Origin: a virus
IMG/VR virus record: IMGVR_UViG_3300035698_017588
Coordinates: 31,002-95,001 of that record
Direction: 5' to 3' (one strand)
Length of the DNA stretch: 64,000 nucleotides
Under the pieces are notes generated by a model, which was given only the letters and a program-made list of their open reading frames with translations, was not told the origin of the DNA and made no database searches. Position numbers and translations under genes: made by a program. Position 1 is the stretch's first letter. Each line of letters starts with the position of its first letter. Shown here in pieces: positions 5,107-64,000 of the stretch.

Positions 5107-6221
5107 ACATCACCCAAGATCTTGAAGGAAATACCACGATCAGTGCAATGCTCTATGATCCTAGTCATAAAAGTCTGACGTTTAATGGATTCAGAATTAT
5201 CGCCAGCTGCGACCAAAGCACTGAACACACTATTAGAATTGACCAGGATAGACTTTGGAGAGCACGACACCAAGATCTCAATGGCAGTCAGCATATTATT
5301 GGAAGAGACAGAAAAGGGCGGTGCGAAATTGATATTCGACGTGAACTGCTTAACTGCGAACGTCCCAACCGGACCCAAAGACGGAGTGAACAAAGGTCCC
5401 GGACTAGTATGGTCAAGCAAGACTATCTGTGCGAATGTTCGAGACATATCGAATTCCGTGATCATCGCACCCGGCAAAGCGAAATAAAAATCCGCGTCGA
5501 TATCGGGGTCCAAAGCAAAAGTCAAATAATTATACTGACAAAATTGATAATCATTCGAATAAGAGTCAGTCAGCAATACATCATTACCACGGACCTTATC
5601 AAAAAGTTTAATAAACCCGTCGCGGTTTGAATTGTGAACTCCGGTCATTGAACCACGAGATTGTGTAACAACGATCTCGTCTTTTTCAGTAGACAACAAG
5701 TAGTCTAAAGATTGGCGTGAATAATTCGACGACAATGAAGCCCTAACTGTTGGCAACGCTTCTCGGAATTTAACAGATGCGAGCCACCCTTCCAAGACTG
5801 AAACATCATATGACTTAGGGTGCAGCAGTAAACTCAATTCTAAAAACAAGTCGGTGATGTTAGTACACCGATGCAATAATCGTGCCAACGTGCCCTTATG
5901 AGCTATTAAACCGAACGGGATAAAATCCGGCTTAACATCGACATTCGTCAAAACCGGTTGAGTCTTCAAATTAGCTTGGAGAGCAACGTGGTTAATCTTC
6001 TTGCCGAATGGGTTCTGGATTTTAGAACTAAATGGCAAGATCTGAGGAACATACATTGCTTTCACATTTGTAGTATCAAAATCAGCCGGTGGTTCCAAGC
6101 ACTGATACGACAAGTCTGCAATCATTACCCATTCTGTTGGAGATTTCCGGACTTTATCAAAGAGCCCAGAAATAGACAATCCATCAGAAAACTTGATACG
6201 ATGTAATTCTTGATATTTCAT
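5088..6221 (-). CDS. Hypothetical protein
   Basis: 377-aa ORF in a co-oriented run. Confidence 0.7.
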   Translation of the reverse strand: MKYQELHRIKFSDGLSISGLFDKVRKSPTEWVMIADLSYQCLEPPADFDTTNVKAMYVPQILPFSSKIQNPFGKKINHVALQANLKTQPVLTNVDVKPDFIPFGLIAHKGTLARLLHRCTNITDLFLELSLLLHPKSYDVSVLEGWLASVKFREALPTVRASLSSNYSRQSLDYLLSTEKDEIVVTQSRGSMTGVHNSNRDGFIKLFDKVRGNDVLLTDSYSNDYQFCQYNYLTFALDPDIDADFYFALPGAMITEFDMSRTFAQIVLLDHTSPGPLFTPSLGPVGTFAVKQFTSNINFAPPFSVSSNNMLTAIEILVSCSPKSILVNSNSVFSALVAAGDNSESIKRQTFMTRIIEHCTDRGISFKILGDVCQLSG

Positions 6222-8861: not shown

Positions 8862-11694
8862 GTCTGAAACAATTCCAGCTCAAGTAATTGATGAAAATCT
8901 GATCGATGCCTGTTTCCCAATGGAAACCTATCGACCACAACAAAAAGAAGTAATACAAGGGATAGTTCGTTCAATCAACGCAGGCTACAAGTACATCATT
9001 GCCGAATGCCCAACCGGAAGCGGCAAAAGCCCAATCGCTGTGGCAATCGGAGCCCTAGCAGGAACCGAACGTGCTTACTACATCACAACCACAAAACACC
9101 TGCAGGACCAGATCGAAACGGACTTCCCAACCGTCGTCACGCTCAAAGGCCGCAATGCCTATCCTTGCACCGCATACCAGAACTTCCAGACTCGACTCTA
9201 CACGATCCTGGGAAAAGACCGGTACACCCAACAAGCAGGTCAAGAACTCAGCTGCGACGAAGGATACTGCAAAACCAACACCGGCAAAGCCAGCTGCAGC
9301 ATGTGCCTCCCAAGCCAAGAGGACAAAGACTCAGGCCGAGTCCAACTGCCACAGGACATGAACTACAGCTTCTGCCCATACTACGAAAAGCTCTACGGCG
9401 GGATCAACGCCCAAACCTGCTCGATGAACTTCAACAACTTCATCCTGCACCTGAACGCCGGGCACCGATTCTCCAAACGCAAAATCCTCATCATCGACGA
9501 ATGTTTTCATGCACACACATTCATCGAAACAGAAATTGGAAGAATTCCAATTGGAAAAATAGTAAACCAAAATCTGCAAGTAAGGGTAAAAAGCTGGAAT
9601 TTCGAAGAAGAAAAATTCGAATATAAACGAGTCACCAGATGGCTAAAAAGAGATGAAAACCAGACATTCAGAGTTCTGGCTGGCAACAGAATAATGTATC
9701 CCACTATGGACCATAAGATTTATACCCCAAATGGTTTAAAAAAGTTGTCTGATTTAAGGATCGGAGACCAAGTCATGGTAAATCAAAATCAGATCACAGA
9801 TGACCAAGAACAATTGGTCTTAGGGTCCTTGTTGGGTGACGCATCACTTGATATTGTCGAATCAAAAAGAATTTCGAAAAAACATGTCAATAAAGGCAAT
9901 AGAGCAAGAATAAGTTTTCGACATGGGCCGAAACAATATGAATACTTGCTTTGGAAACATTCTTTATTAAAAGGACACGTCGGAAATAAACCCAAACTAG
10001 AAAAATCGAAAGGTTTTGGAAAAACAACAGCCAGATTCCAAACAAATTGCGGGTTTTATGATACGATCATGCCGACAATATTAGGCGGTCGTAAAACACC
10101 AAAAGATTCATGGTTGAATAAAATCGGACTACTCGGTCTGGCAGTGTGGTACATGGATGATGGTGGAAAATCGAATGAGACGTGCAGATTTCACACTCAA
10201 GGATTTGATTATTCAGAAGTGGTTACATTAAGAAATTGGTTAACAACCAAATGGGATCTTGCAGCCAGCGTGCACGAAGAGAAAAAAGAAGATGGGAGAA
10301 TCTATTTCTATATCTCATTAAACAGACAATCATCAAGAAGGCTAATGTGGATTATATCAAAATTTGTGCCAACACATATGAGATATAAATTACTTGAATT
10401 CAAAAAATGCAATCAAGACGGGGTTTTAGACAAGTCCATTGAGAACGATTCATGGCCTCAATACAACGACCAAATAGAAAATCAAGATGTAAAAGAAACG
10501 ACATTTCAACCGATCATCTCGATCGATCAGTATAAATATGATTACACCTATGACTTAGAAGTAGAGGATAATCATAATTATGTTGCAGGAAACACTGTTG
10601 TTTCTAATTGCCACAACACCGAAGCCAAGCTGCTTGATTATCTCGAATGTACAGTGAGCAGCCGACACATCGAAACCAAAATCCCAGAACTCACCAACCC
10701 GATGCAATACGTCACATGGTTGCAACAGATCGGGGCGTTGCAATATCTCAAGGACAAAATCGAAACAGCTCGGGAAAGCCAAAATCTCCGGATGATGACG
10801 ACTTATGAGGGACTGTTCAAGAAGTACATCAATATGATGATCGAGGTCAAGGAAGATCCAACAGGGTGGGTCGTCGAGTACGAAGAAGACAAGAAAACGG
10901 ACACGACCAAAGCGACTCTCAAACCGATTTTCGCTCACCGGGCTGCGAAGAATTTTCTATTCAAGTTCGCTGATCACATCGTCTTCTTGAGTGCGACGAT
11001 TCTCAATGCTAAGACTTTCGCACGAAACCTTGGAATCCAAGAGGGAGAATACGCCGCTATGCGTATCCCATCGCAATTCCCGATTGTTAATCGCCCGATC
11101 ACGACTGATTTCGCCGGTCGATTCACTGGTGGCAAAGCCAAAATGAACCAATGGATCGGTGATATGTCTAATAAGGTAGTCGATATCGCACTCCGTTACA
11201 AAGAGCATCGCGGGATCATCCACACTCACTCATTCGGCATTCAACGAGCCCTCATCGAGAAGCTTCCACCGGTAGTGAGTAATCGATTGATTCAACAATT
11301 CGATTTTCAGACCAAAACCGAAATGATCGAAGCCCATGCGAAACGTCCGGGCTCTATTATCATCGCACCGGCCATGCATGAAGGTGTCGACTTGAAGGAT
11401 GATCTGAGCCGATTCCAGATCCTTTGCAAGGTGCCTTTCGCCAATTTCTACGAGAACAAGCAACTCGAAGCTCGAATGGAGCTTGACTCAGAATATTATG
11501 ACTACATTACCATACTCAAAATTATACAAAGCGTAGGGCGCAGTGTTAGAAGTATGACAGATTGGGCAGATACTTTTATTATTGACGAGTCTTTTGACCG
11601 AATTTATCGGAATAATCAAAATTCTTTTCCATTGTGGTTCAAAGAAGCCGTAACCAAGGAGATACCAAATGTCCGCAAAAAGGAAAAGATTTAA
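8860..11694 (+). CDS. DinG/Rad3-family SF2 helicase with intein
   Basis: Q motif YRPQQ, Walker A PTGSGKS, Cys cluster, DE|CH, SAT, EGVD, KVPF, QSVGRSVR. Confidence 0.92.
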   Translation: MSETIPAQVIDENLIDACFPMETYRPQQKEVIQGIVRSINAGYKYIIAECPTGSGKSPIAVAIGALAGTERAYYITTTKHLQDQIETDFPTVVTLKGRNAYPCTAYQNFQTRLYTILGKDRYTQQAGQELSCDEGYCKTNTGKASCSMCLPSQEDKDSGRVQLPQDMNYSFCPYYEKLYGGINAQTCSMNFNNFILHLNAGHRFSKRKILIIDECFHAHTFIETEIGRIPIGKIVNQNLQVRVKSWNFEEEKFEYKRVTRWLKRDENQTFRVLAGNRIMYPTMDHKIYTPNGLKKLSDLRIGDQVMVNQNQITDDQEQLVLGSLLGDASLDIVESKRISKKHVNKGNRARISFRHGPKQYEYLLWKHSLLKGHVGNKPKLEKSKGFGKTTARFQTNCGFYDTIMPTILGGRKTPKDSWLNKIGLLGLAVWYMDDGGKSNETCRFHTQGFDYSEVVTLRNWLTTKWDLAASVHEEKKEDGRIYFYISLNRQSSRRLMWIISKFVPTHMRYKLLEFKKCNQDGVLDKSIENDSWPQYNDQIENQDVKETTFQPIISIDQYKYDYTYDLEVEDNHNYVAGNTVVSNCHNTEAKLLDYLECTVSSRHIETKIPELTNPMQYVTWLQQIGALQYLKDKIETARESQNLRMMTTYEGLFKKYINMMIEVKEDPTGWVVEYEEDKKTDTTKATLKPIFAHRAAKNFLFKFADHIVFLSATILNAKTFARNLGIQEGEYAAMRIPSQFPIVNRPITTDFAGRFTGGKAKMNQWIGDMSNKVVDIALRYKEHRGIIHTHSFGIQRALIEKLPPVVSNRLIQQFDFQTKTEMIEAHAKRPGSIIIAPAMHEGVDLKDDLSRFQILCKVPFANFYENKQLEARMELDSEYYDYITILKIIQSVGRSVRSMTDWADTFIIDESFDRIYRNNQNSFPLWFKEAVTKEIPNVRKKEKI
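9502..10608 (+). mobile_element. Intein (369 aa) with LAGLIDADG endonuclease in helicase motif II
   Basis: Starts CFHAHT, block B TMDH, LGSLLGDAS and WYMDDG, ends YDLEVEDNHNYVAGNTVVSN|C; removal restores IIDECHN. Confidence 0.93.
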
Positions 11695-30668: not shown

Positions 30669-31334
30669 ATGGTTAAGAATCTTGGCGGTCGAATTGAACT
30701 GGAAGTTGGTAAGAAGGTTCGATTCCTAGATATTCATGGTTGTGTCAGCCCTGATATTTATGAATTCGACACCCCGCACACTGATTACAGAGCAAGGGCA
30801 TCACTAAAGAATGGAGACTGTGTTGTTCAAACGCACTACGATCGCATTCTACCCCTTGAATCGGGAGGAAAAGCAATCGCAGTGTTGGGCGAAAAGGACA
30901 TAACCATTACTTGTCCGAGTTGCCGCAAAGTCGTGACCGCCGAGTCCGGTCAAACCCATTTCACTTGTTGTTCGACATTAGAGGTATTTTTCATGTCAGA
31001 CGCTGTAAACGAAGTCCAAAAGCAGGAAGAGCAAAAGTTCGACCTTGAATCACTCAAGGCTAACTACGAAGTATGGACCAAGGATGGTCAATTCAGCGAG
31101 AACATCGGCTTGACGACAGTCCAGCTGGTCCTTCTCCAAGGCGAAACTCCGCGAAAGATGAGTTTCAATCTCTACGACGGCAAATTATCCACCAGCGGCA
31201 AACAAGTCGATCTTCGCCTCGAAGAATTCAACAAGGGCGAAGTCAACGAGGGCAAGAAAAAATTCTGGTACGACGTGGATTCCACCAAGTACCAAAAAGC
31301 CCTGACGTCCAAGGGATATGAAAAGCTTGCCTAA
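30669..31334 (+). CDS. Hypothetical protein with zinc-ribbon motif
   Basis: GGAGG RBS; CPSC..CC. Confidence 0.65.
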   Translation: MVKNLGGRIELEVGKKVRFLDIHGCVSPDIYEFDTPHTDYRARASLKNGDCVVQTHYDRILPLESGGKAIAVLGEKDITITCPSCRKVVTAESGQTHFTCCSTLEVFFMSDAVNEVQKQEEQKFDLESLKANYEVWTKDGQFSENIGLTTVQLVLLQGETPRKMSFNLYDGKLSTSGKQVDLRLEEFNKGEVNEGKKKFWYDVDSTKYQKALTSKGYEKLA

Positions 31335-58604: not shown

Positions 58605-58803
58605 TTGTGCTTAAAATCATTAACATTGATCTTCTTACCCAATGCCATTGGATCAGTCTCAATGTTCGAGGTCATCATCGTCGCCGACTTTTATTAGTGC
58701 GACCGCCAGTGCGTCGATGATTCGTCGATCGCGATCTGTCCGCAGCGGCGGTGCCTGCTTCGCCCTTTCGTGTGGCATCATCATGTTTTGATTCCCGGTA
58801 GCC

Positions 58804-58893
58804 GCACAACAACGATGATGCAAACGACGGGCGGCATACGTCGAATACAATGGTTAATCTTCTATCGCCCGCGTTTGATCACGAGCGTTCTCT
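58804..58893 (+). repeat. attC-like site 1
   Basis: gcacAAC..GATGCAAACG..CGTTTGATC-acgagc-GTTctct. Confidence 0.75.
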
Positions 58894-59204
58894 CTCTCTA
58901 CTTGCGGCTTTTCGCAAGCCAGCGGAGCCACGCTAAGTGCCACCGCAATTCACGTTCTTCCACCCGCGTGACCGCATTGTCTTCGCAAAATTCTCTGATC
59001 GTCATTACGGCCTCAACGGTGTCCACCACCCCTGCGAATCTCCGTATTGTGCCATCCACGCTGTCACGTTGACCAACACGACCCCAAATAGCCACGCACT
59101 ACCGCCGACGCAAAACACATTCCATCCAATGAGTACGCCCGTTTTTGCGATGGTTCTCCACGGCCAATCTTCGATCGGTGTCCCCCTTGGCGGATCGTAC
59201 GGAT

Positions 59205-59429
59205 TCATTGCTCGTCTTCCCTTGCTGCTCGCTTGTATTCTGCGTTGCATGGCTGGCAATACTCGGCGTCTTCGATTCCGTGTTCGCACACTTCCTCTGG
59301 ATTGTCCTGCATCCACAATTCAAGCTCAACAATTGAATCGCTGATTGATTCGGCCTTGTGCGTGTGTGGTCGCCATTCTTGTCGACTGTTGGCTTCGTCG
59401 TCAAATACTACTAAAACTGGCTTGCTCAT
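59205..59429 (-). CDS. Small hypothetical cassette protein
   Basis: MSKPVLVVFDD..CEHG..YCQPC; followed by further small overlapping minus-strand ORFs down to 58898. Confidence 0.55.
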   Translation of the reverse strand: MSKPVLVVFDDEANSRQEWRPHTHKAESISDSIVELELWMQDNPEEVCEHGIEDAEYCQPCNAEYKRAAREDEQ

Positions 59430-59441
59430 TGGTTTCTCGCG

Positions 59442-59461
59442 GCTGAACAAAAAATTGGTGA
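59442..59461 (+). repeat. Left half of an attC-like site, cut by the IS right end
   Basis: gctgAAC-aaaaa-ATTG resembles the start of the 62428 site (tgcgAAC-aaaaa-ATTG); no right arm found. Confidence 0.5.
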
Positions 59462-59670
59462 GTAAACATCCCCACGGATAAATCCGGGGGCTTTTGTGAA
59501 TAACCTCAAGCACAATTCCCAAAGGCAGTGCCGTCAACGATTCGTCGTGCGATTTGGTGGTTGTTAGTTCTCCTGTAATTGGCCTCATCTTTGGACAGGG
59601 ATTTAAGCCGACGCTTTGCCGACTTTGTTCCGACAGATTGAAGAATGTCCCGGCGAGCCTGAAACCAAAC

Positions 59671-60183
59671 TCATTTGGCCTTAAGCTCGTCGGCGGGAAA
59701 AGCATTGCCGTCGGAATCGACGGCAATCTTAGCTACGCCGAAATCGACGCTGAGTACGCTACTGGAAACATCCTTCGGGACGTCATCGAGCTTGATCGAA
59801 ACAAGCAAGTAGAAAACGCCTTTTACGTAAACCAAGTCAGCCTGGTCGCCTTTAATTGCTTCCTGCAACCGAGACTCTTGATAGCCAGCGATCACCATTG
59901 GAATTACAAGTCGGCCGTCAAGCGACCCAAGGCTAACATGCGTCAGCCCCTTGAATCGCATAATCCGTTCGTCATAGACAATGGTAGATTGCTCGCGAAG
60001 ATCGCGGTAGCAAAGGCGGTGGATGCTGGGCTGCGAAAACACCTTGGCATCAAAGCCGACCTTGGCATCAAAGCCGACCTTGGCGGCGTGACTAGCCGAC
60101 AGATAGAACGCCTTGAAAGTACGCAACAATGCGTCTTTCTGGGTGGCGTCAGGAAGCAATTTGATTTTGACGGTGAGTTGCAT
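59671..60183 (-). pseudogene. tnpB: Truncated TnpB
   Basis: MQLTVKIKLLP..QKDALLRT, GDQADLVY..FYL, RuvC-I VLSVDFGV..IAVDSDG; RuvC-II, zinc finger and RuvC-III are missing. Confidence 0.8.
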
Positions 60184-60189
60184 ACGAGA

Positions 60190-60217
60190 ACTATAGCCAG
60201 ATACGTTCATAAGTCAA
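60190..60217 (-). promoter_or_regulatory. Putative sigma-70 promoter for a leaderless tnpB transcript
   Basis: TTGACT-16 nt-TATAGT, with 6 nt between the -10 box and the ATG. Confidence 0.5.
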
Positions 60218-60316: not shown

Positions 60317-60409
60317 TTGGAACAAGCGGATGCACCGATCCGCGTTAAAATTGGTTTGGTTTGAAAGTTTGAGTCTACCGTGGCAACCCGGTAAACATTA
60401 GCGTTAGGT
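60317..60409 (+). repeat. attC-like site 2 (arms pair poorly, probably chimeric)
   Basis: ttggAAC-aagcg-GATGCACC..GGTAAAC-attagc-GTTaggt. Confidence 0.7.
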
Positions 60410-60895
60410 GGACGACGGCTGCACGATACAATCGTCGCAACGTTCAAACGCCGATTCGGTTGTGCCATCGCAATCGGGGCAAACCCACTTGCCGCTTGCG
60501 GCGTCGTTGGCTTGCTCACACAATCGGCGGCACTCGCTTTCGACATACGACTGCGACCGCACCACACCATCGACGAAATCCGTCGAAGTCCATCCGCGAT
60601 TGTTCGGCAGGTCTGGGTCTCTCGCATCCCAAGCGTGAGCGCAATCAAATCCGACCCACCACGCATCGTCGTCGCCCTTGCCGCAATCCGTATCCGGCTG
60701 TGAAAACGTGCAACCGCCGTGAACGTCCACGGGTTGCTCCATCGTTTCCACGCCGTGCCACGGGTGACCCTTCGGAACGCGGACGTATCCGCACCGATAG
60801 CCGCCGTCGTTGTGGACAACCTGCCACTCGAAACCTAAATGCTCACCCTTTGCCAAGACGCAATCTGGGCGGGAAATCGCAACGCTTAAACACAT
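60404..60895 (-). CDS. Cassette gene: conserved phage hypothetical protein
   Basis: CGYVRVPKGHPWHG..VHGG.TF..WWVGFDCAH; stop codon inside the R' box; AGGAG RBS inside the next R'' box. Confidence 0.8.
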   Translation of the reverse strand: MCLSVAISRPDCVLAKGEHLGFEWQVVHNDGGYRCGYVRVPKGHPWHGVETMEQPVDVHGGCTFSQPDTDCGKGDDDAWWVGFDCAHAWDARDPDLPNNRGWTSTDFVDGVVRSQSYVESECRRLCEQANDAASGKWVCPDCDGTTESAFERCDDCIVQPSST

Positions 60896-60902
60896 GTCGC
60901 AC

Positions 60903-60991
60903 TCCTAACAATTGATTGCACCGATTGCCGTCGATGCGTGTTTGAAATGGTTAATTTCACCGTCGGCAATCGGTGAATCAATGCGTTACGA
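60903..60991 (+). repeat. attC-like site 3
   Basis: tcctAAC-aattg-ATTGCACCgattgccg..cggcaatcGGTGAAT-caatgc-GTTacga. Confidence 0.9.
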
Positions 60992-61291
60992 CGACGACTT
61001 CCGCTCGAAGTGCATCGTCATTTGATCGTCGCTGAATCCTGTCGGTGTGATGTCGCTATCGGGATTGCACGTATGCCAAGCGAACAGCAAATCTTTCGCT
61101 GCTGCAATGTGGACGAACTTTTTCGTGAACCACTGAAAGTCGTCAAACCACTGCCGGGGTGATCGATCTTTCTCTGGGCCGTTCCAAAACAGCCCGTAGT
61201 AAACTTCGCGGAACAACACGTCACCGCCAATTTCTTGGTGCAATGCGGACAGCACCGCTTCCACCACTTCTGTTCTGCTTTTCGTAATCAT
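60986..61291 (-). CDS. Cassette gene: hypothetical protein
   Basis: ATG 61291 with AGGAG RBS; TAA inside the R' box. Confidence 0.65.
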   Translation of the reverse strand: MITKSRTEVVEAVLSALHQEIGGDVLFREVYYGLFWNGPEKDRSPRQWFDDFQWFTKKFVHIAAAKDLLFAWHTCNPDSDITPTGFSDDQMTMHFERKSSS

Positions 61292-61314
61292 GTCATCTCC
61301 TGGATAGGTCGCGA

Positions 61315-61404
61315 TCGTAACAATGGGTTGCACCATGTCGGGCTTGCACGTCTTTTCGCAATGGAGAGTCAACCGTCCCGACACGGTGAACCCAAGCGTT
61401 CGTC
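61315..61404 (+). repeat. attC-like site 4
   Basis: tcgtAAC-aatgg-GTTGCACC..tgtcggg..cccgaca..GGTGAAC-ccaagc-GTTcgtc. Confidence 0.9.
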
Positions 61405-61978
61405 ATACCGAGCTTGCGGCTGCCAACTCGATGTCAACCGTTTCGTTGTCGTATGGATTGTGACCTATCCACCTGATGTTTTTGAGACAATACGTTTTGC
61501 AAAGATACTCGGTAATTCGCTGCATGATCTCCGCCGTTGGCGGCCTCCACGCCGTTTGAAACTCAATCAAAATCGGCGAACCGTCGCCCCCAAGTTCGTG
61601 GACTTTCAATCCGTAGGTGCCCCATTTGGTACCCCACTCTTTCGTTTGCCAGTCAAACCAATCGGCTGCGCCGTGCTTGGAAAACAGATCGGTAATTTCA
61701 TCTTCGGTCAAAGCAACTCGCTCCCACTGGTCGCGTTCATCGTGCTTGGGTCCGTTGCAATCTTTCGACACTTCGCCGCTAGTCTTGTGGACATAGCGGC
61801 ATTTCGGATTTGACGCGACAATGCCAGCTAGCTCATCTGGCAACTTTGACATCAACTCGCAAAGGTTTGCACCCTTCAGCGACTCGAAATCAATCTCGTC
61901 GTAATCCTCTTTGCCGATGGCTTCGAGTGCGAGCCAGTCTCTAGCACAAAGCCCAATGGTCAGGAAATTGTTTGGCAT
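61403..61978 (-). CDS. Cassette gene: DUF1281/YubB-like ferredoxin-fold protein
   Basis: MPN start, DWFDWQTKEWGTKW, FQTAWRPP. Confidence 0.78.
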   Translation of the reverse strand: MPNNFLTIGLCARDWLALEAIGKEDYDEIDFESLKGANLCELMSKLPDELAGIVASNPKCRYVHKTSGEVSKDCNGPKHDERDQWERVALTEDEITDLFSKHGAADWFDWQTKEWGTKWGTYGLKVHELGGDGSPILIEFQTAWRPPTAEIMQRITEYLCKTYCLKNIRWIGHNPYDNETVDIELAAASSV

Positions 61979-61994
61979 CTATTGGTCCTCGGAT

Positions 61995-62086
61995 GACGAA
62001 CAAAGCGATGATGTGGATCGCTCGTTCAATGTTGTTTGGTTTGGTCAATGTCTTTCGCTCGCGACCACATATCGCAAGCGTTCGCA
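61995..62086 (+). repeat. attC-like site 5
   Basis: gacgAAC-aaagc-GATGATGTgg..ccACATATC-gcaagc-GTTcgca. Confidence 0.9.
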
Positions 62087-62089
62087 GGA

Positions 62090-62410
62090 CTAAACCTGCA
62101 CAACCAAAACCTCTTTGCCTGCCAGCGGGTTCGGCATCGCCGCATATCGCTTCATGGCCGCTTCGTTTTCTTCGACCGTCATCTCTCGCAACGGGTAATC
62201 TCCGACGTGGCTTGGATCGTGCTGGCCGTCCCAAAATCGCTCGTCCGTTACTTGCTCTCGCAACCAAGGCTCCACGGCTCGCATCACTCGCGGAATCATG
62301 TGCGTCATGATTCCGCCGTCACGGGTGATGAAATCCAAGTCCTGATAGATGTCCTGCATTTTCGTATGCAGCTTGCTGGTTGTAAGGTTTCTCAATCTCT
62401 GAATGTCCAT
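62090..62410 (-). CDS. Cassette gene: hypothetical phage protein
   Basis: AAGGAG RBS then MDIQRLRNLTT.KLHT..DIY..THMIPR..PWL. Confidence 0.7.
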   Translation of the reverse strand: MDIQRLRNLTTSKLHTKMQDIYQDLDFITRDGGIMTHMIPRVMRAVEPWLREQVTDERFWDGQHDPSHVGDYPLREMTVEENEAAMKRYAAMPNPLAGKEVLVVQV

Positions 62411-62427
62411 GTCAAAACTCCTTAGCC

Positions 62428-62518
62428 TGCGAACAAAAAATTGCATCGAAGTCGCGGTCGTGCTCTTTTCAAATAGTTAGGTTCATCGCCGCGACTCGAT
62501 GAATTTTAGACGTTCTGC
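62428..62518 (+). repeat. attC-like site 6
   Basis: tgcgAAC-aaaaa-ATTGCATCgaagtcgcgg..ccgcgactcGATGAAT-tttagac-GTTctgc. Confidence 0.88.
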
Positions 62519-62836
62519 TTACGACAAAACACGAATGGCCTGGAACTCCCACAGACCTGTAGGGTTGAATCGCCATCGGAAATACTCACCTTCTTCGTCG
62601 CGGTCCCAATTGTCTTCGTCGCAAATCCATTCGCGAACGGCACCATCAACGAAATCCGTGCCGGTCAGTTCGATCAATTGCGACATCGCTGCATGTCCAG
62701 ATCCACACAACTGCGATACACGAATCTCCCCAATCTCGACAAGCAACCACGACGATAACGCGGCCTCGCCGTCGGTTAACGGGTTGACCGTCGAAGTAGA
62801 ACAAGCCGTTGGATGCGGATCGGCGGGAGAATTCAT
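62519..62836 (-). CDS. Cassette gene: hypothetical protein starting inside the attC loop
   Basis: AAGGA RBS and ATG (MNSPADPHPTACST) lie within site 7. Confidence 0.55.
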   Translation of the reverse strand: MNSPADPHPTACSTSTVNPLTDGEAALSSWLLVEIGEIRVSQLCGSGHAAMSQLIELTGTDFVDGAVREWICDEDNWDRDEEGEYFRWRFNPTGLWEFQAIRVLS

Positions 62837-62906
62837 TCGTGATTCCTTTAAGTCTTTTGGTTTGCAGAATTTCTTCATCGCCGACCGATCAACGGCAGCG
62901 TTAGGA
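62796..62906 (+). repeat. attC-like site 7
   Basis: gtagAAC-aagcc-GTTGGATG..tcggcg..cgccga..GATCAAC-ggcagc-GTTagga. Confidence 0.82.
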
Positions 62907-63149
62907 TGACGAAAACACCGAGCGAAGAACGCCAGCAACGTCGCCAATGATCTGGCGTTGCTGCTCTGGGATGCTGCCCAGATTGCTTAACAGCGTCAAC
63001 TCCTCAACGGCTCCATCCATCCTCTGTTGCAGACCGGGTATCTTCGCCAGTCGTCCGTGTGGGCTGTCTGGCTTGGCGATAAACAACGGCCAATCACCGG
63101 CAATGCCGGGTGCCATCGCCTTTTCTTCGGTAACGTAAAAATCTGCCAT
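62901..63149 (-). CDS. Cassette gene: hypothetical protein
   Basis: 82 aa filling the cassette; TAA in R'; AGGA RBS from the next R''. Confidence 0.65.
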   Translation of the reverse strand: MADFYVTEEKAMAPGIAGDWPLFIAKPDSPHGRLAKIPGLQQRMDGAVEELTLLSNLGSIPEQQRQIIGDVAGVLRSVFSSS

Positions 63150-63157
63150 GGTCGCGA

Positions 63158-63248
63158 TCCTAACAATTGATCGATCCCGTTTGCGGTCGAGATCAATTGG
63201 TTGAGTTTAGTTTTCCCGCCGCAAAACGGGATAATCAAAGCGTTATGC
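63158..63248 (+). repeat. attC-like site 8
   Basis: tcctAAC-aattg-ATCGATCCcgtttgcgg..ccgcaaaacgGGATAAT-caaagc-GTTatgc. Confidence 0.85.
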
Positions 63249-63465
63249 GGATTTACGTTCCGCGTCTTTTTCGAGCGTGGTCTTGAATCCGAAATTGCCC
63301 GCAACGTGAAAACACACAACGCCTTCGGGGCGCATGAATCCCGGTGCGGCCTTGCTGCCGTTGGCTCGCAGTTCCGCCAATGCCTGCGAAGAGGGAACCA
63401 AACGTTAAAGGCGTGCTAACAAAGTCATGAACCGGAGCAACCGGCAACGTCTCTTTTGTATTCAT
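63243..63465 (-). pseudogene. Deletion-fusion remnant: C5 DNA methyltransferase N-terminus joined out of frame to an RNA-ligase-like C-terminus
   Basis: LTFGSLFAGIGG (MTase motif I), then in another frame (63377-63243) AELRANGSKAAPGFMRPEGVVCFH..FKTTLEKD..* with TAA in R'. Confidence 0.65.
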
Positions 63466-63503
63466 AATAACTTTCGGTTGCCCGGTTATGACAAGCGTTC
63501 ATC
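63414..63503 (+). repeat. attC-like site 9
   Basis: tgctAAC-aaagt-CATGAACCggagcaacc..ggttgcccGGTTATG-acaagc-GTTcatc. Confidence 0.9.
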
Positions 63504-63507
63504 GGAC

Positions 63508-63948
63508 CTACCTGTAGTTCTCTATCGCCTTGAGCAATTCGGGGCGAGGTCCAAAATCCCGAATATTCAACTCGATGTCGCGTTTCGACATCCACAACCA
63601 TTCACCGTCGCAGGCGACCCTAGCCGCCTTCGCACCTCTCGCCTTGCGACGATGGTTGAACTCGATGAACTCAAACACTGGTTCGCTGCTCAATGCGATC
63701 ACCTCCTCGACTCGCCGATCGTAGTCCGATTGTGCTTTTCCCAAATCTCGGAACTTGTTCGCGTCCGCAATCTGGCCGTTGTCGCGAAAGTCCCATACGT
63801 GATACGTCGTCCAGTTTGCGTGTTCCCGTCCTTCCACGACGCGATCAAACCATACCTCCTCTCGCATCGTGCGACCATTGAAAAATTGCCGAACTGTGCT
63901 GCAATCGTCGTTCGTCATGTGTCGGCCAAAAATACTTATCTCGCTCAT
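63508..63948 (-). CDS. Cassette gene: hypothetical protein
   Basis: AGGA RBS then MSEISIFG; fills the cassette. Confidence 0.65.
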   Translation of the reverse strand: MSEISIFGRHMTNDDCSTVRQFFNGRTMREEVWFDRVVEGREHANWTTYHVWDFRDNGQIADANKFRDLGKAQSDYDRRVEEVIALSSEPVFEFIEFNHRRKARGAKAARVACDGEWLWMSKRDIELNIRDFGPRPELLKAIENYR

Positions 63949-63966
63949 GAAATTTCCTGACGGCAC

Positions 63967-64000
63967 GATGAACAATGCGATGATGCCGATCGCTCGTTCA
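63967..64000 (+). repeat. attC-like site 10 (cut by the window edge)
   Basis: gatgAAC-aatgc-GATGATGCcgatcgctcgttca, nearly identical to the left arm of site 5. Confidence 0.85.

Follow-up and report, generated by a model that had tools for sequence, protein, structure and literature searches.

Integron-type cassettes with genes on the opposite strand in an array at the end of a phage contig

The end of the phage contig IMGVR_UViG_3300035698_017588 carries a row of integron-type mobile gene cassettes in which all supported genes lie on the strand opposite to that used in textbook integrons. The same layout is shared by a lineage of phage-encoded integrons with their own integrase. The window analysed is the 64,000-nt stretch from position 31,002 to 95,001 of that record, and coordinates below are those of the window. 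The array occupies 58.8-64.0 kb and includes at least 10 attC hairpins, but no integrase gene or attI box was found in the 95-kb record, making this a CALIN rather than a complete integron. That the array is physically part of this phage is likely but not certain, since a chimeric contig cannot be excluded. The features of the array are as follows.

58808-58889 (+): attC a0, the leftmost recognisable site, with bulges G..6 bp..A on the plus-strand 5' arm
58898-59429 (-): one cassette with three tightly overlapping small ORFs (58898-59005, 59005-59208 and 59205-59429), read directly from the sequence alone
59442-59470 (+): R''/L'' half-site (GCTGAAC AAAAAATTG...) of an attC with no recognisable partner arm, next to the IS remnant; identified by eye and uncertain
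59671-60210 (-): truncated transposase (TnpB/OrfB-like) fragment inside the array (phrog_506 transposase, 4e-5), with a sigma-70-like site at 60217-60190
60321-60405 (+): attC a1, a hybrid in which the 5' arm of one site is joined to the 3' arm of another, the arms not being complementary; R' is GTTAGGT, and the 3' arm matches an arm of the attC at 1886-1968 of L003, a homologue locus
60404-60895 (-): cassette gene c1 (163 aa; phrog_2164, 3.7e-26); its stop TAA is the first 3 nt of the cassette and its Shine-Dalgarno AGGAG is supplied by R''
60907-60987 (+): attC a2
60986-61291 (-): cassette gene c2 (about 101 aa), with ATG at 61291, its own Shine-Dalgarno AGGAG and a stop TAA at the crossover; no homologue found
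61319-61400 (+): attC a3
61403-61978 (-): cassette gene c3 (191 aa), a conserved family with 82 homologues (best 95%); 76% identity in this frame against 53% antisense
61999-62082 (+): attC a4 (G..6 bp..A)
62090-62410 (-): cassette gene c4 (DUF7736; PF24875, 1e-11, residues 14-67 of the long form), with a likely start at 62410 preceded by Shine-Dalgarno AAGGAG
62432-62514 (+): attC a5 (G..6 bp..A)
62519-62836 (-): cassette gene c5 (105 aa), whose Shine-Dalgarno AAGGAA and ATG lie in the loop of attC a6 and whose first 13 codons read through its arm; a 68% homologue keeps the frame open through the arm
62800-62902 (+): attC a6, a long (103 nt) site with a start module in its loop; a loop-embedded Shine-Dalgarno-ATG module also lies at 5136-5238 of locus L113
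62901-63149 (-): cassette gene c6 (82 aa), with TAA at the crossover and Shine-Dalgarno from R'' (GTTAGGA)
63162-63244 (+): attC a7
63243-63401 (-): c7, a 52-aa frame ending at the crossover TAA, probably a gene fragment in a truncated cassette
63418-63499 (+): attC a8 (G..6 bp..A)
63508-63948 (-): cassette gene c8 (146 aa), two small domains that occur separately in homologues (141 representative homologues)
63971-64000 (+): attC a9, cut by the contig end; resembles a4

The attC sites have the RYYYAAC...GTTRRRY inverse cores flanking an imperfect hairpin that are expected of integron cassettes, reading AACAA...GCGTT on the plus strand. Folding of both strands, one of the checks set beforehand, places the extrahelical bases on the 5' arm of the plus strand, the same arm as 5'-AAC, which is the top-strand geometry defined by Nivina et al. 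2016 (PMC5027507). The full G..6 bp..A pattern is seen in a0, a4, a5, a8 and a9, with G only in a2 and a3. The bottom strand would read T..C instead of the usual T..G. The minus-strand folds are on average about 1.3 kcal/mol more stable. The skew evidence is mixed, since the loops are T-rich on the plus strand (AT skew -0.27) but slightly G-rich (GC skew +0.13), the latter being opposite to the skew of mobile-integron attCs. The attC finder is crude, but with the same script two real controls, aadA1 in R100 and the CALIN of phage TJE1, give the opposite, canonical ORF/attC relation. Neighbouring sites are also linked in the way expected of cassettes: the R' after site N-1 equals the reverse complement of the R'' of site N in 7/7 positions for 5 of 8 junctions and in 6/7 for 2, and fails for 1, the c7 cassette.

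Minus-strand ORFs have a PHROG, Pfam or homologue hit in 5 of 8 cassettes, whilst ten plus-strand ORFs gave no hits. The promoterless ORF on the attC top strand, followed by its own attC, that defines a standard cassette is therefore not found here. Four stops (60404, 60986, 62901 and 63243) are the TAA made by the first three bases of the cassette (G|TTA), at distance 0 from the crossover, and the other four are 4-10 nt away. Two Shine-Dalgarno sequences come from R'': GTTAGGAG-6 nt-ATG for the start at 60895 and GTTAGGA-8 nt-ATG for the start at 63149.

The observation made in the first-pass annotation, that the cassette ORFs are inverted relative to their attC sites and that these sites supply some of their translation signals, is confirmed. 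Some details need correction. The array, placed there at 60317-63975, extends left to about 58.8 kb. The gene at 62090-62446 more likely starts at 62410, outside the attC. Two ORFs were proposed to start within attC loops, but only that at 62836 appears to do so; the other frame (VAPVHDFVS, 63253-63465) is probably spurious. That cassette looks like a truncated fragment. The transposase is also incomplete: the full-length TnpB/OrfB with RuvC-like domain expected of an IS200/IS605-type element is absent, leaving only a 179-aa N-terminal fragment with a weak PHROG hit and no Pfam hit.

The reversed polarity is not a local oddity. Two homologue loci, L002 and L003, are arrays with the same polarity, and the same assembly holds a true IntI (TIGR02249, 311 bits against a cut-off of 265; no match to this profile was found in the 95-kb record). 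The array of this IntI lies on the 5' side of intI, with the attC top strand pointing away from intI and the ORFs pointing toward it. The polarity also holds in complete phage integrons (loci L015, L023, which is the same as L119, L112, L113 and L115-L118), which carry their own IntI clade and a conserved attI box, xxxxAAC|AAYTTATT, in the canonical place. In L015 and L023, the first-cassette junctions lie 50-72 nt from the intI start with no hairpin in between, and the junction 7-mer matches the R'' of the first attC in 7/7 positions. The attI box is conserved in 10 loci, each with an intI-sense ORF stopping 0-14 nt before the AAC, and the complementarity between successive cores continues up to the attI box in L112, L113, L116 and L118. 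L115 and L116 are 100% identical over intI plus 91 nt and unrelated beyond exactly that AAC, consistent with natural replacement of the first cassette, although this is only indirect evidence for IntI-mediated recombination.

A survey of ORF against attC polarity used a test for stops at the box, since a longest-ORF heuristic was noisy in this GC range. In this clade, 25 of 49 oriented sites were antisense-only, 3 canonical-only, 16 both and 5 neither; in controls and other clades, 4 of 35 sites were antisense-only, 15 canonical-only, 6 both and 10 neither. The site and ORF heuristics are crude, with many 'both' calls. The integron platforms are phage-borne, with terminase (8e-112), portal (1e-76) and major head protein (1e-108) genes beside intI, and more than 548 IMG/VR contigs encode IntI relatives. 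No IntI was found in 200 genomes of the order of the MAG that holds L002, L003 and L015, and the 'Microbacteriaceae' label of those GC-0.53 contigs is probably a binning artefact. Comparisons of shared cassettes, aimed at mapping the mobile unit, showed that the methylase cassettes of L015 and L024 are only 73-84% alike and that L113 and L118 share only the attC. A search for an attI box at the left edge of the window's array gave only a weak, wrongly oriented resemblance near 58687, which was rejected.

The explanation favoured here, with fair but not full confidence, is that the window contains the visible part of a cassette array belonging to a phage-associated integron lineage in which the recombination machinery is laid out canonically and only the cargo is flipped. 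In this view, intI is divergent from the attC top strand, attI (box xxxxAA|C-AAYTTATT on the intI-sense strand) lies 40-90 nt upstream of intI, the crossover is at G|TT of R', and the attC bulges sit on the R''-L'' arm with the usual 6-bp spacing. The cargo gene, however, lies on the attC bottom strand, so that each mobile unit is 'attC first, gene second': a hairpin, then a ribosome-binding site (sometimes made by R'', sometimes with the ATG inside the hairpin loop), then the ORF, with the stop at or within 10 nt of the last base of the cassette. The site geometry, the linkage between neighbouring sites, the minus-strand coding evidence, the layout of the relatives and the phage setting of their platforms are demonstrated by the sequence analysis. 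Recombination of these sites by IntI through the bottom strand, and the way the genes are transcribed and translated, are inferred.

If genes are read toward attI/intI, a promoter at attI cannot drive them, and they are most likely transcribed by read-through from upstream cassettes and flanking phage promoters. The phage genes at 43.5-58.6 kb are mostly on the minus strand, like the cassettes. A promoter for each cassette is unsupported: a sigma-70 scan of 58.6-64 kb found 3 sites against 3.8 expected, none in an attC, and no -10 element was seen by eye. The recombinogenic strand would be the non-template strand and, if the genes are co-oriented with replication, the lagging-strand template, which would favour folding and fast shuffling. 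Placing the bottom strand on the lagging-strand template is known to raise cassette excision (PMC11023631).

The interpretation offered in the first-pass annotation is therefore partly supported. A distinct cassette class is supported, and more strongly than could be seen from the window alone. Expression from the opposite end of the array fits the geometry but remains an inference. The idea that such cassettes may be silent when parked in a host integron remains conjecture, and is not needed because the lineage has its own phage-borne platforms.

An alternative is that the attC sites are mirrored: the cassettes would be ordinary, with each gene followed by its own attC, and this IntI lineage would recombine the other strand, the bulges having simply moved to the other arm. 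Read in the ORF sense, the layout does look textbook (GTTRRRY, Shine-Dalgarno, ORF, stop in TAAC, hairpin), the bulged base next to the R box is G on the ORF template strand, as in canonical bottom strands, rather than the C of the proposed bottom strand, and the loop GC skew points the same way. However, in at least 10 related integrons the conserved attI box lies next to intI at the 3' end of the last ORF with no hairpin between them, and L115 and L116 diverge exactly at that AAC, whereas a mirrored arrangement would require attI to sit at the far end of the array, away from intI. The arm that carries the bulges, the 6-bp spacing and the distal bulged T all fit canonical bottom-strand geometry on the ORF strand, and this alternative seems unlikely. 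It is most improbable that the sites are merely terminator or REP-like palindromes that happen to end in AAC/GTT. All are intergenic hairpins of similar length with no integrase in the record, but this reading is contradicted by the matching of neighbouring cores, the conserved bulge pattern, the lack of T-runs after the hairpins and the presence of the same site type beside true IntI genes and attI boxes, with natural cassette replacement.

It is also possible, though unlikely, that the array belongs to a bacterial chromosome or another element and was joined to the phage contig by mis-assembly. The GC content jumps from about 0.44 to 0.52 near 58.6 kb (0.39-0.48 in the rest of the record), the array runs off the end of a contig from a record that is only 27% complete, an IS remnant lies in the region, and a viral scan with the adjacent phage protein (57266-58126) found no relatives with which synteny could be compared. 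Against this, the cassette ORFs are co-directional and contiguous with the flanking minus-strand phage genes, cassette families hit phage protein families, one of them occurs as an ordinary gene in another viral contig, and the same attC/IntI lineage lies inside bona fide phage genomes. The polarity finding holds whatever replicon carries the array.

CALINs in virulent phages are already known, as in TJE1 (Qi et al. 2023, PMC9892861). Like the class 1 aadA1 array of R100 and the array of TJE1, the window's array has R''/R' inverse cores, an imperfect hairpin, bulges spaced by 6 bp, a crossover at G|TT and matching neighbouring cores, and its relatives have IntI (TIGR02249) with attI beside it, divergent from the attC top strand. 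In R100 and TJE1, however, the ORF strand carries the bulges (C..A) on the 5' arm, whereas here it carries them on the 3' arm, so that the gene follows its attC instead of preceding it; the top-strand bulge is G rather than C, and the attI box AAC|AAYTTATT is specific to the lineage. In the 'inverted integron-integrase' integrons of the Treponema type (Cury 2016, PMC4889954; Wu 2013, PMC3607928), intI and the cassette genes are also transcribed in the same direction. But in L015, L023, L112, L113 and L115-L118, intI is opposite to the attC top strand and transcribed away from attI, the array lies upstream of intI and the genes run into intI. Loci of Treponema-like layout (L046, L066 and L084) were seen separately in the survey. 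Reverse-oriented, self-promoted cassettes, for example toxin-antitoxin cassettes, occur in Vibrio chromosomal integrons and are expressed independently of Pc; such cassettes are only touched on in PMC11023631. These are a minority in otherwise canonical arrays and carry their own promoters, whilst here the reversal is a feature of the array, as far as its genes are supported, and of a whole IntI lineage, with the site counts given above. No toxin-antitoxin domains and no promoter enrichment were found. Literature searches for reversed cargo polarity, though not exhaustive, found no description of it.

A more far-reaching possibility, which the evidence allows but which is tentative and somewhat less likely than not, is that phages run their own class of integron, with a dedicated IntI clade, the attI box AAC|AAYTTATT and 'attC-first' cassettes in which the hairpin doubles as the 5' leader, ribosome-binding site and sometimes the start codon. 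In this class the reversed polarity would be functional. Genes would be expressed by read-through within phage transcription units that end in intI, coupling integrase expression to cassette transcription, and the recombinogenic strand would be the non-template (lagging-template) strand, giving fast cassette turnover during infection. Integrase-less arrays such as this one, in a jumbo-type phage, would draw on the same cassette pool.

The standard integron model rests on promoterless cassettes inserted at attI so that they face away from intI and are read from Pc. In the lineage described here, on phage genomes, the recombination topology appears to be kept but the cargo is flipped, so that the newest cassette would be the last gene of a unit that reads into intI, and the hairpin would become the leader of the gene. 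If this holds, the expression-gradient logic does not apply to these integrons, and surveys that annotate cassettes by attC strand will mis-assign their cargo. Whether strand placement tunes cassette turnover in phages would become directly testable. The arrangement would also point to a large, shared pool of small phage accessory genes exchanged by site-specific recombination.

The array lies at the very end of a 95,001-bp linear IMG/VR virus record (bases 31002-95001 of which form the window) that is rated 27% complete by CheckV. GC content is 0.39-0.48 up to 58 kb and 0.50-0.53 from 58 to 64 kb. Inspection of the sequence, folding and an arm-against-arm alignment script identified hairpins of 81-103 nt bounded by AAC...GTT. 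Read on the + strand, these are located as follows:
58808-58889, hairpin
60321-60405, hybrid site with non-complementary arms
60907-60987, hairpin
61319-61400, hairpin
61999-62082, hairpin
62432-62514, hairpin
62800-62902, long (103-nt) hairpin
63162-63244, hairpin
63418-63499, hairpin
63971 onward, hairpin cut by the contig end

On the + strand the sites read AACAA...(A/G)(G/A)CGTT, and the 5' arm carries one to three unpaired bases, typically G, then a 6-bp stem, then A. The two arms of the hybrid at 60321-60405 do not pair; its 5' arm comes from one site and its 3' arm from another, the latter being nearly identical to an arm of the attC at 1886-1968 in L003, a related array. The likely cause is a deletion between two sites, perhaps through their similar T/G-rich loops.

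The array also holds a half-site at about 59442 and a truncated transposase (TnpB/OrfB-like) fragment at 59671-60210 on the - strand. This fragment contains an 18-nt tandem duplication (VGFDAK VGFDAK, about 60046-60085), and the only good sigma-70-like site of the region (TTGACT-16-TATAGT, 60217-60190) lies just upstream of it. One cassette, at 58898-59429 on the - strand, holds three tightly overlapping small ORFs of 35, 67 and 74 aa joined by ATGA and TAATG overlaps. The middle one looks membrane-spanning, and the cassette may be a small operon or a toxin-antitoxin-like module.

The classical signature of integron cassettes is present. The 7-mer following G|TT of one site is the exact reverse complement of the R'' of the next site for 5 of 8 junctions; it matches at 6/7 positions for two more and fails once, at the short cassette between the sites at 63162-63244 and 63418-63499. 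A site's own R'' and R' match far less well. This is taken as strong evidence for integron-type mobile cassettes.

The strands of the sites can be assigned from the rules given by Nivina et al. 2016 (PMC5027507). The extrahelical bases lie on the same arm as 5'-AAC-3' in the top strand and on the opposite arm in the bottom strand, with a 6-bp stem between the first and last extrahelical base. On the bottom strand the distal base is a conserved T and the proximal one is usually G, and the bottom strand is more stable and richer in purines. In the window, the + strand has the top-strand geometry, the - strand would carry T..6 bp..C, and the - strand folds are on average about 1.3 kcal/mol more stable. 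The loops are T-rich on the + strand (AT skew -0.27) but slightly G-rich. So position, spacing, the distal T, stability and AT skew agree with this assignment, whereas the identity of the proximal base and the GC skew do not. As positive controls, the same script was applied to aadA1 of plasmid R100 and to the published CALIN of virulent phage TJE1. In both, the annotated ORF strand carries the extra bases (C..A) on the 5' arm, the opposite relation to that in the window.

The evidence for coding favours the - strand, where five ORFs have supporting matches:
60404-60895 (-), hit to phrog_2164 (3.7e-26)
61403-61978 (-), 191-aa protein with 82 homologues of up to 95% identity; 76% identical to its relatives in this frame against 53% in the antisense frame
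62090-62446 (-), DUF7736 (1e-11)
62519-62836 (-), a 68% homologue
63508-63948 (-), 146-aa protein with 141 representative homologues

In contrast, ten + strand ORFs of 63-229 aa gave no Pfam and no PHROG hit. The 146-aa protein is a fusion of two modules that occur as separate small proteins in homologues, residues 5-87 matching proteins of 86-106 aa and residues 88-146 matching more than 100 proteins of 60-90 aa. The observation of the first-pass annotation, that the cassette ORFs are inverted with respect to their attC sites and borrow signals from them, is confirmed, with corrections to two of the ORFs.

The sites seem to supply several translation signals, as judged from sequence. Four ORFs end with a TAA that is the complement of the first three bases of the cassette (G|TTA), at 60404, 60986, 62901 and 63243, and all four GTTA sites are used in this way; the other stops are 4-10 nt from the crossover. 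R'' supplies the Shine-Dalgarno sequence for two genes (GTTAGGAG-6-ATG at 60895 and GTTAGGA-8-ATG at 63149), whilst the others have their own AGGAG, GAGGA or AAGGAG. These stops and Shine-Dalgarno sequences are as the first-pass annotation had claimed. It had also proposed that two ORFs start within attC loops. Gene 62519-62836 does start at an ATG with an AAGGAA Shine-Dalgarno in the loop of the 103-nt site at 62800-62902 and reads through its arm, and its homologue keeps that frame open with a 3-nt indel. The second claimed loop start (VAPVHDFVS, 63253-63465) has an implausible Arg-rich product and competes with a more protein-like frame that ends at the crossover, and is probably spurious, lying inside a truncated cassette. 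Gene 62090-62446 probably starts at 62410, outside the hairpin.

Near-identical long (103-nt) attC sites with a Shine-Dalgarno sequence and an ATG in the loop occur in two phage integrons, at 5136-5238 in L113 and 563-665 in L118 (both viral contigs encoding related IntI proteins). There they encode a leader peptide of about 22 aa (MSD(S/F)KEVPSDVDGASCPSRCST) fused in frame to unrelated downstream sequences in the two phages. This looks like a portable translation-start module.

The reversed polarity is not local. Loci L002 and L003, fetched through the 191-aa protein, are arrays with 11 and 6 sites. With the gene on the + strand, those sites read AACGCT...TTGTT with the extra bases on the 3' arm, the same polarity as the window. 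The same assembly encodes a true integron integrase (TIGR02249, 311 bits, cut-off 265). On that contig, L015, intI lies at 1976-2989 on the - strand and the array lies on its 5' side with the attC top strand on +, which is canonical; the ORFs, however, are on the - strand, running toward intI. The first cassette of L015 starts at taataaattG|TTACCA, 72 nt from the intI start, and TTACCA is complementary to the R'' of the first attC. L023, a second intI-bearing locus, shows the same arrangement with G|TTCGCA. In neither is there a hairpin between intI and the stop of the first ORF.

An IntI alignment was used to retrieve 80 metagenome and 80 viral loci. All relatives above about 46% identity carry a conserved box, xxxxAAC AAYTTATT, 40-90 nt upstream of intI on the intI-sense strand, and in each an intI-sense ORF stops 0-14 nt before the AAC. 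More distant IntIs lack the box. Between this attI box and the intI start in L015, L018-L025, L028 and L112-L118 lie one or two copies of a GCGCA(A/G)(A/G)T(A/T)AT-like motif, for example GCGCAAATAA or GCGCAGGTTAT, which may be accessory IntI-binding repeats or an operator.

A natural experiment is provided by two of the viral loci, L115 and L116, which are 100% identical over intI plus 91 nt and unrelated beyond a breakpoint that falls exactly at the AAC of the box, with different ORF ends abutting it on each contig. The cassette chain rule (complementarity between the 7-mer after G|TT and the next R'') runs through the arrays up to the attI box in L112, L113, L116 and L118. This places attI beside intI and the crossover at the ORF-stop end of each cassette, and argues against the alternative that the sites are merely mirrored. 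A stop-at-box count, made with an attC finder that is crude, gave for this clade (49 oriented sites in 13 arrays) 25 antisense-only, 3 canonical-only, 16 both and 5 neither, whereas 35 sites from controls and other clades gave 4 antisense-only, 15 canonical-only, 6 both and 10 neither. The survey also included canonical integrons (L047, L080) and Treponema-like ones with the array downstream of intI (L046, L066, L084). The architecture described here is distinct from the published 'inverted integrase' group, which is defined by intI having the same orientation as attC and being transcribed toward attI.

The close IntI relatives lie on IMG/VR contigs of 17-44 kb. L117 has large terminase (8e-112) and portal (1e-76) genes a few kb from intI, and L112 has a major head/protease protein (1e-108) and a tape-measure protein. 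L023 equals L119 (99.97% identity), a roughly 39.8-kb genome seen in two samples. More than 548 viral contigs encode IntI relatives. DNA methyltransferases recur as cassette or array-adjacent genes in these phage integrons (L015 3073-3738, L023 6808-7524, the first cassette of L024 and L112 745-1737), as Qi et al. noted for published phage CALINs. The 191-aa cassette gene also occurs as an ordinary gene in another viral contig, and a solitary attC of the same polarity (9330-9412) follows an ordinary gene in L098, a 24.6-kb viral contig that carries a homologue of the 191-aa cassette gene outside any array. The window's own record has no IntI. The GC shift and the position at the contig end leave it possible that the record is a chimera, although the cassette genes are co-directional with the neighbouring phage genes.

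CALINs in virulent phages have been published (Qi 2023), but the example tested here, TJE1, is canonical. Searches of the literature, within an incomplete collection, found no description of reversed cargo polarity.

The analysis shows, at the level of sequence, that the recombination topology is canonical and the cargo is flipped, so that the mobile unit is a hairpin, then a leader and ribosome-binding site, then the ORF, then a stop at the crossover. Recombination of the sites, the expression of the genes and the role of the strands are inferred, without experimental or RNA evidence. The interpretation in the first-pass annotation, of a distinct cassette class expressed from the opposite end of the array, is partly supported. 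It is inferred that a promoter at attI cannot drive these genes. With no promoter signal found in the sites, read-through from upstream cassettes or flanking phage promoters is the most likely source of transcription, and in complete platforms that transcription would run into intI. The recombinogenic strand is likewise inferred to be the non-template strand and, by GC skew, it may be the lagging-strand template, a condition that raised excision in Vibrio experiments (PMC11023631).
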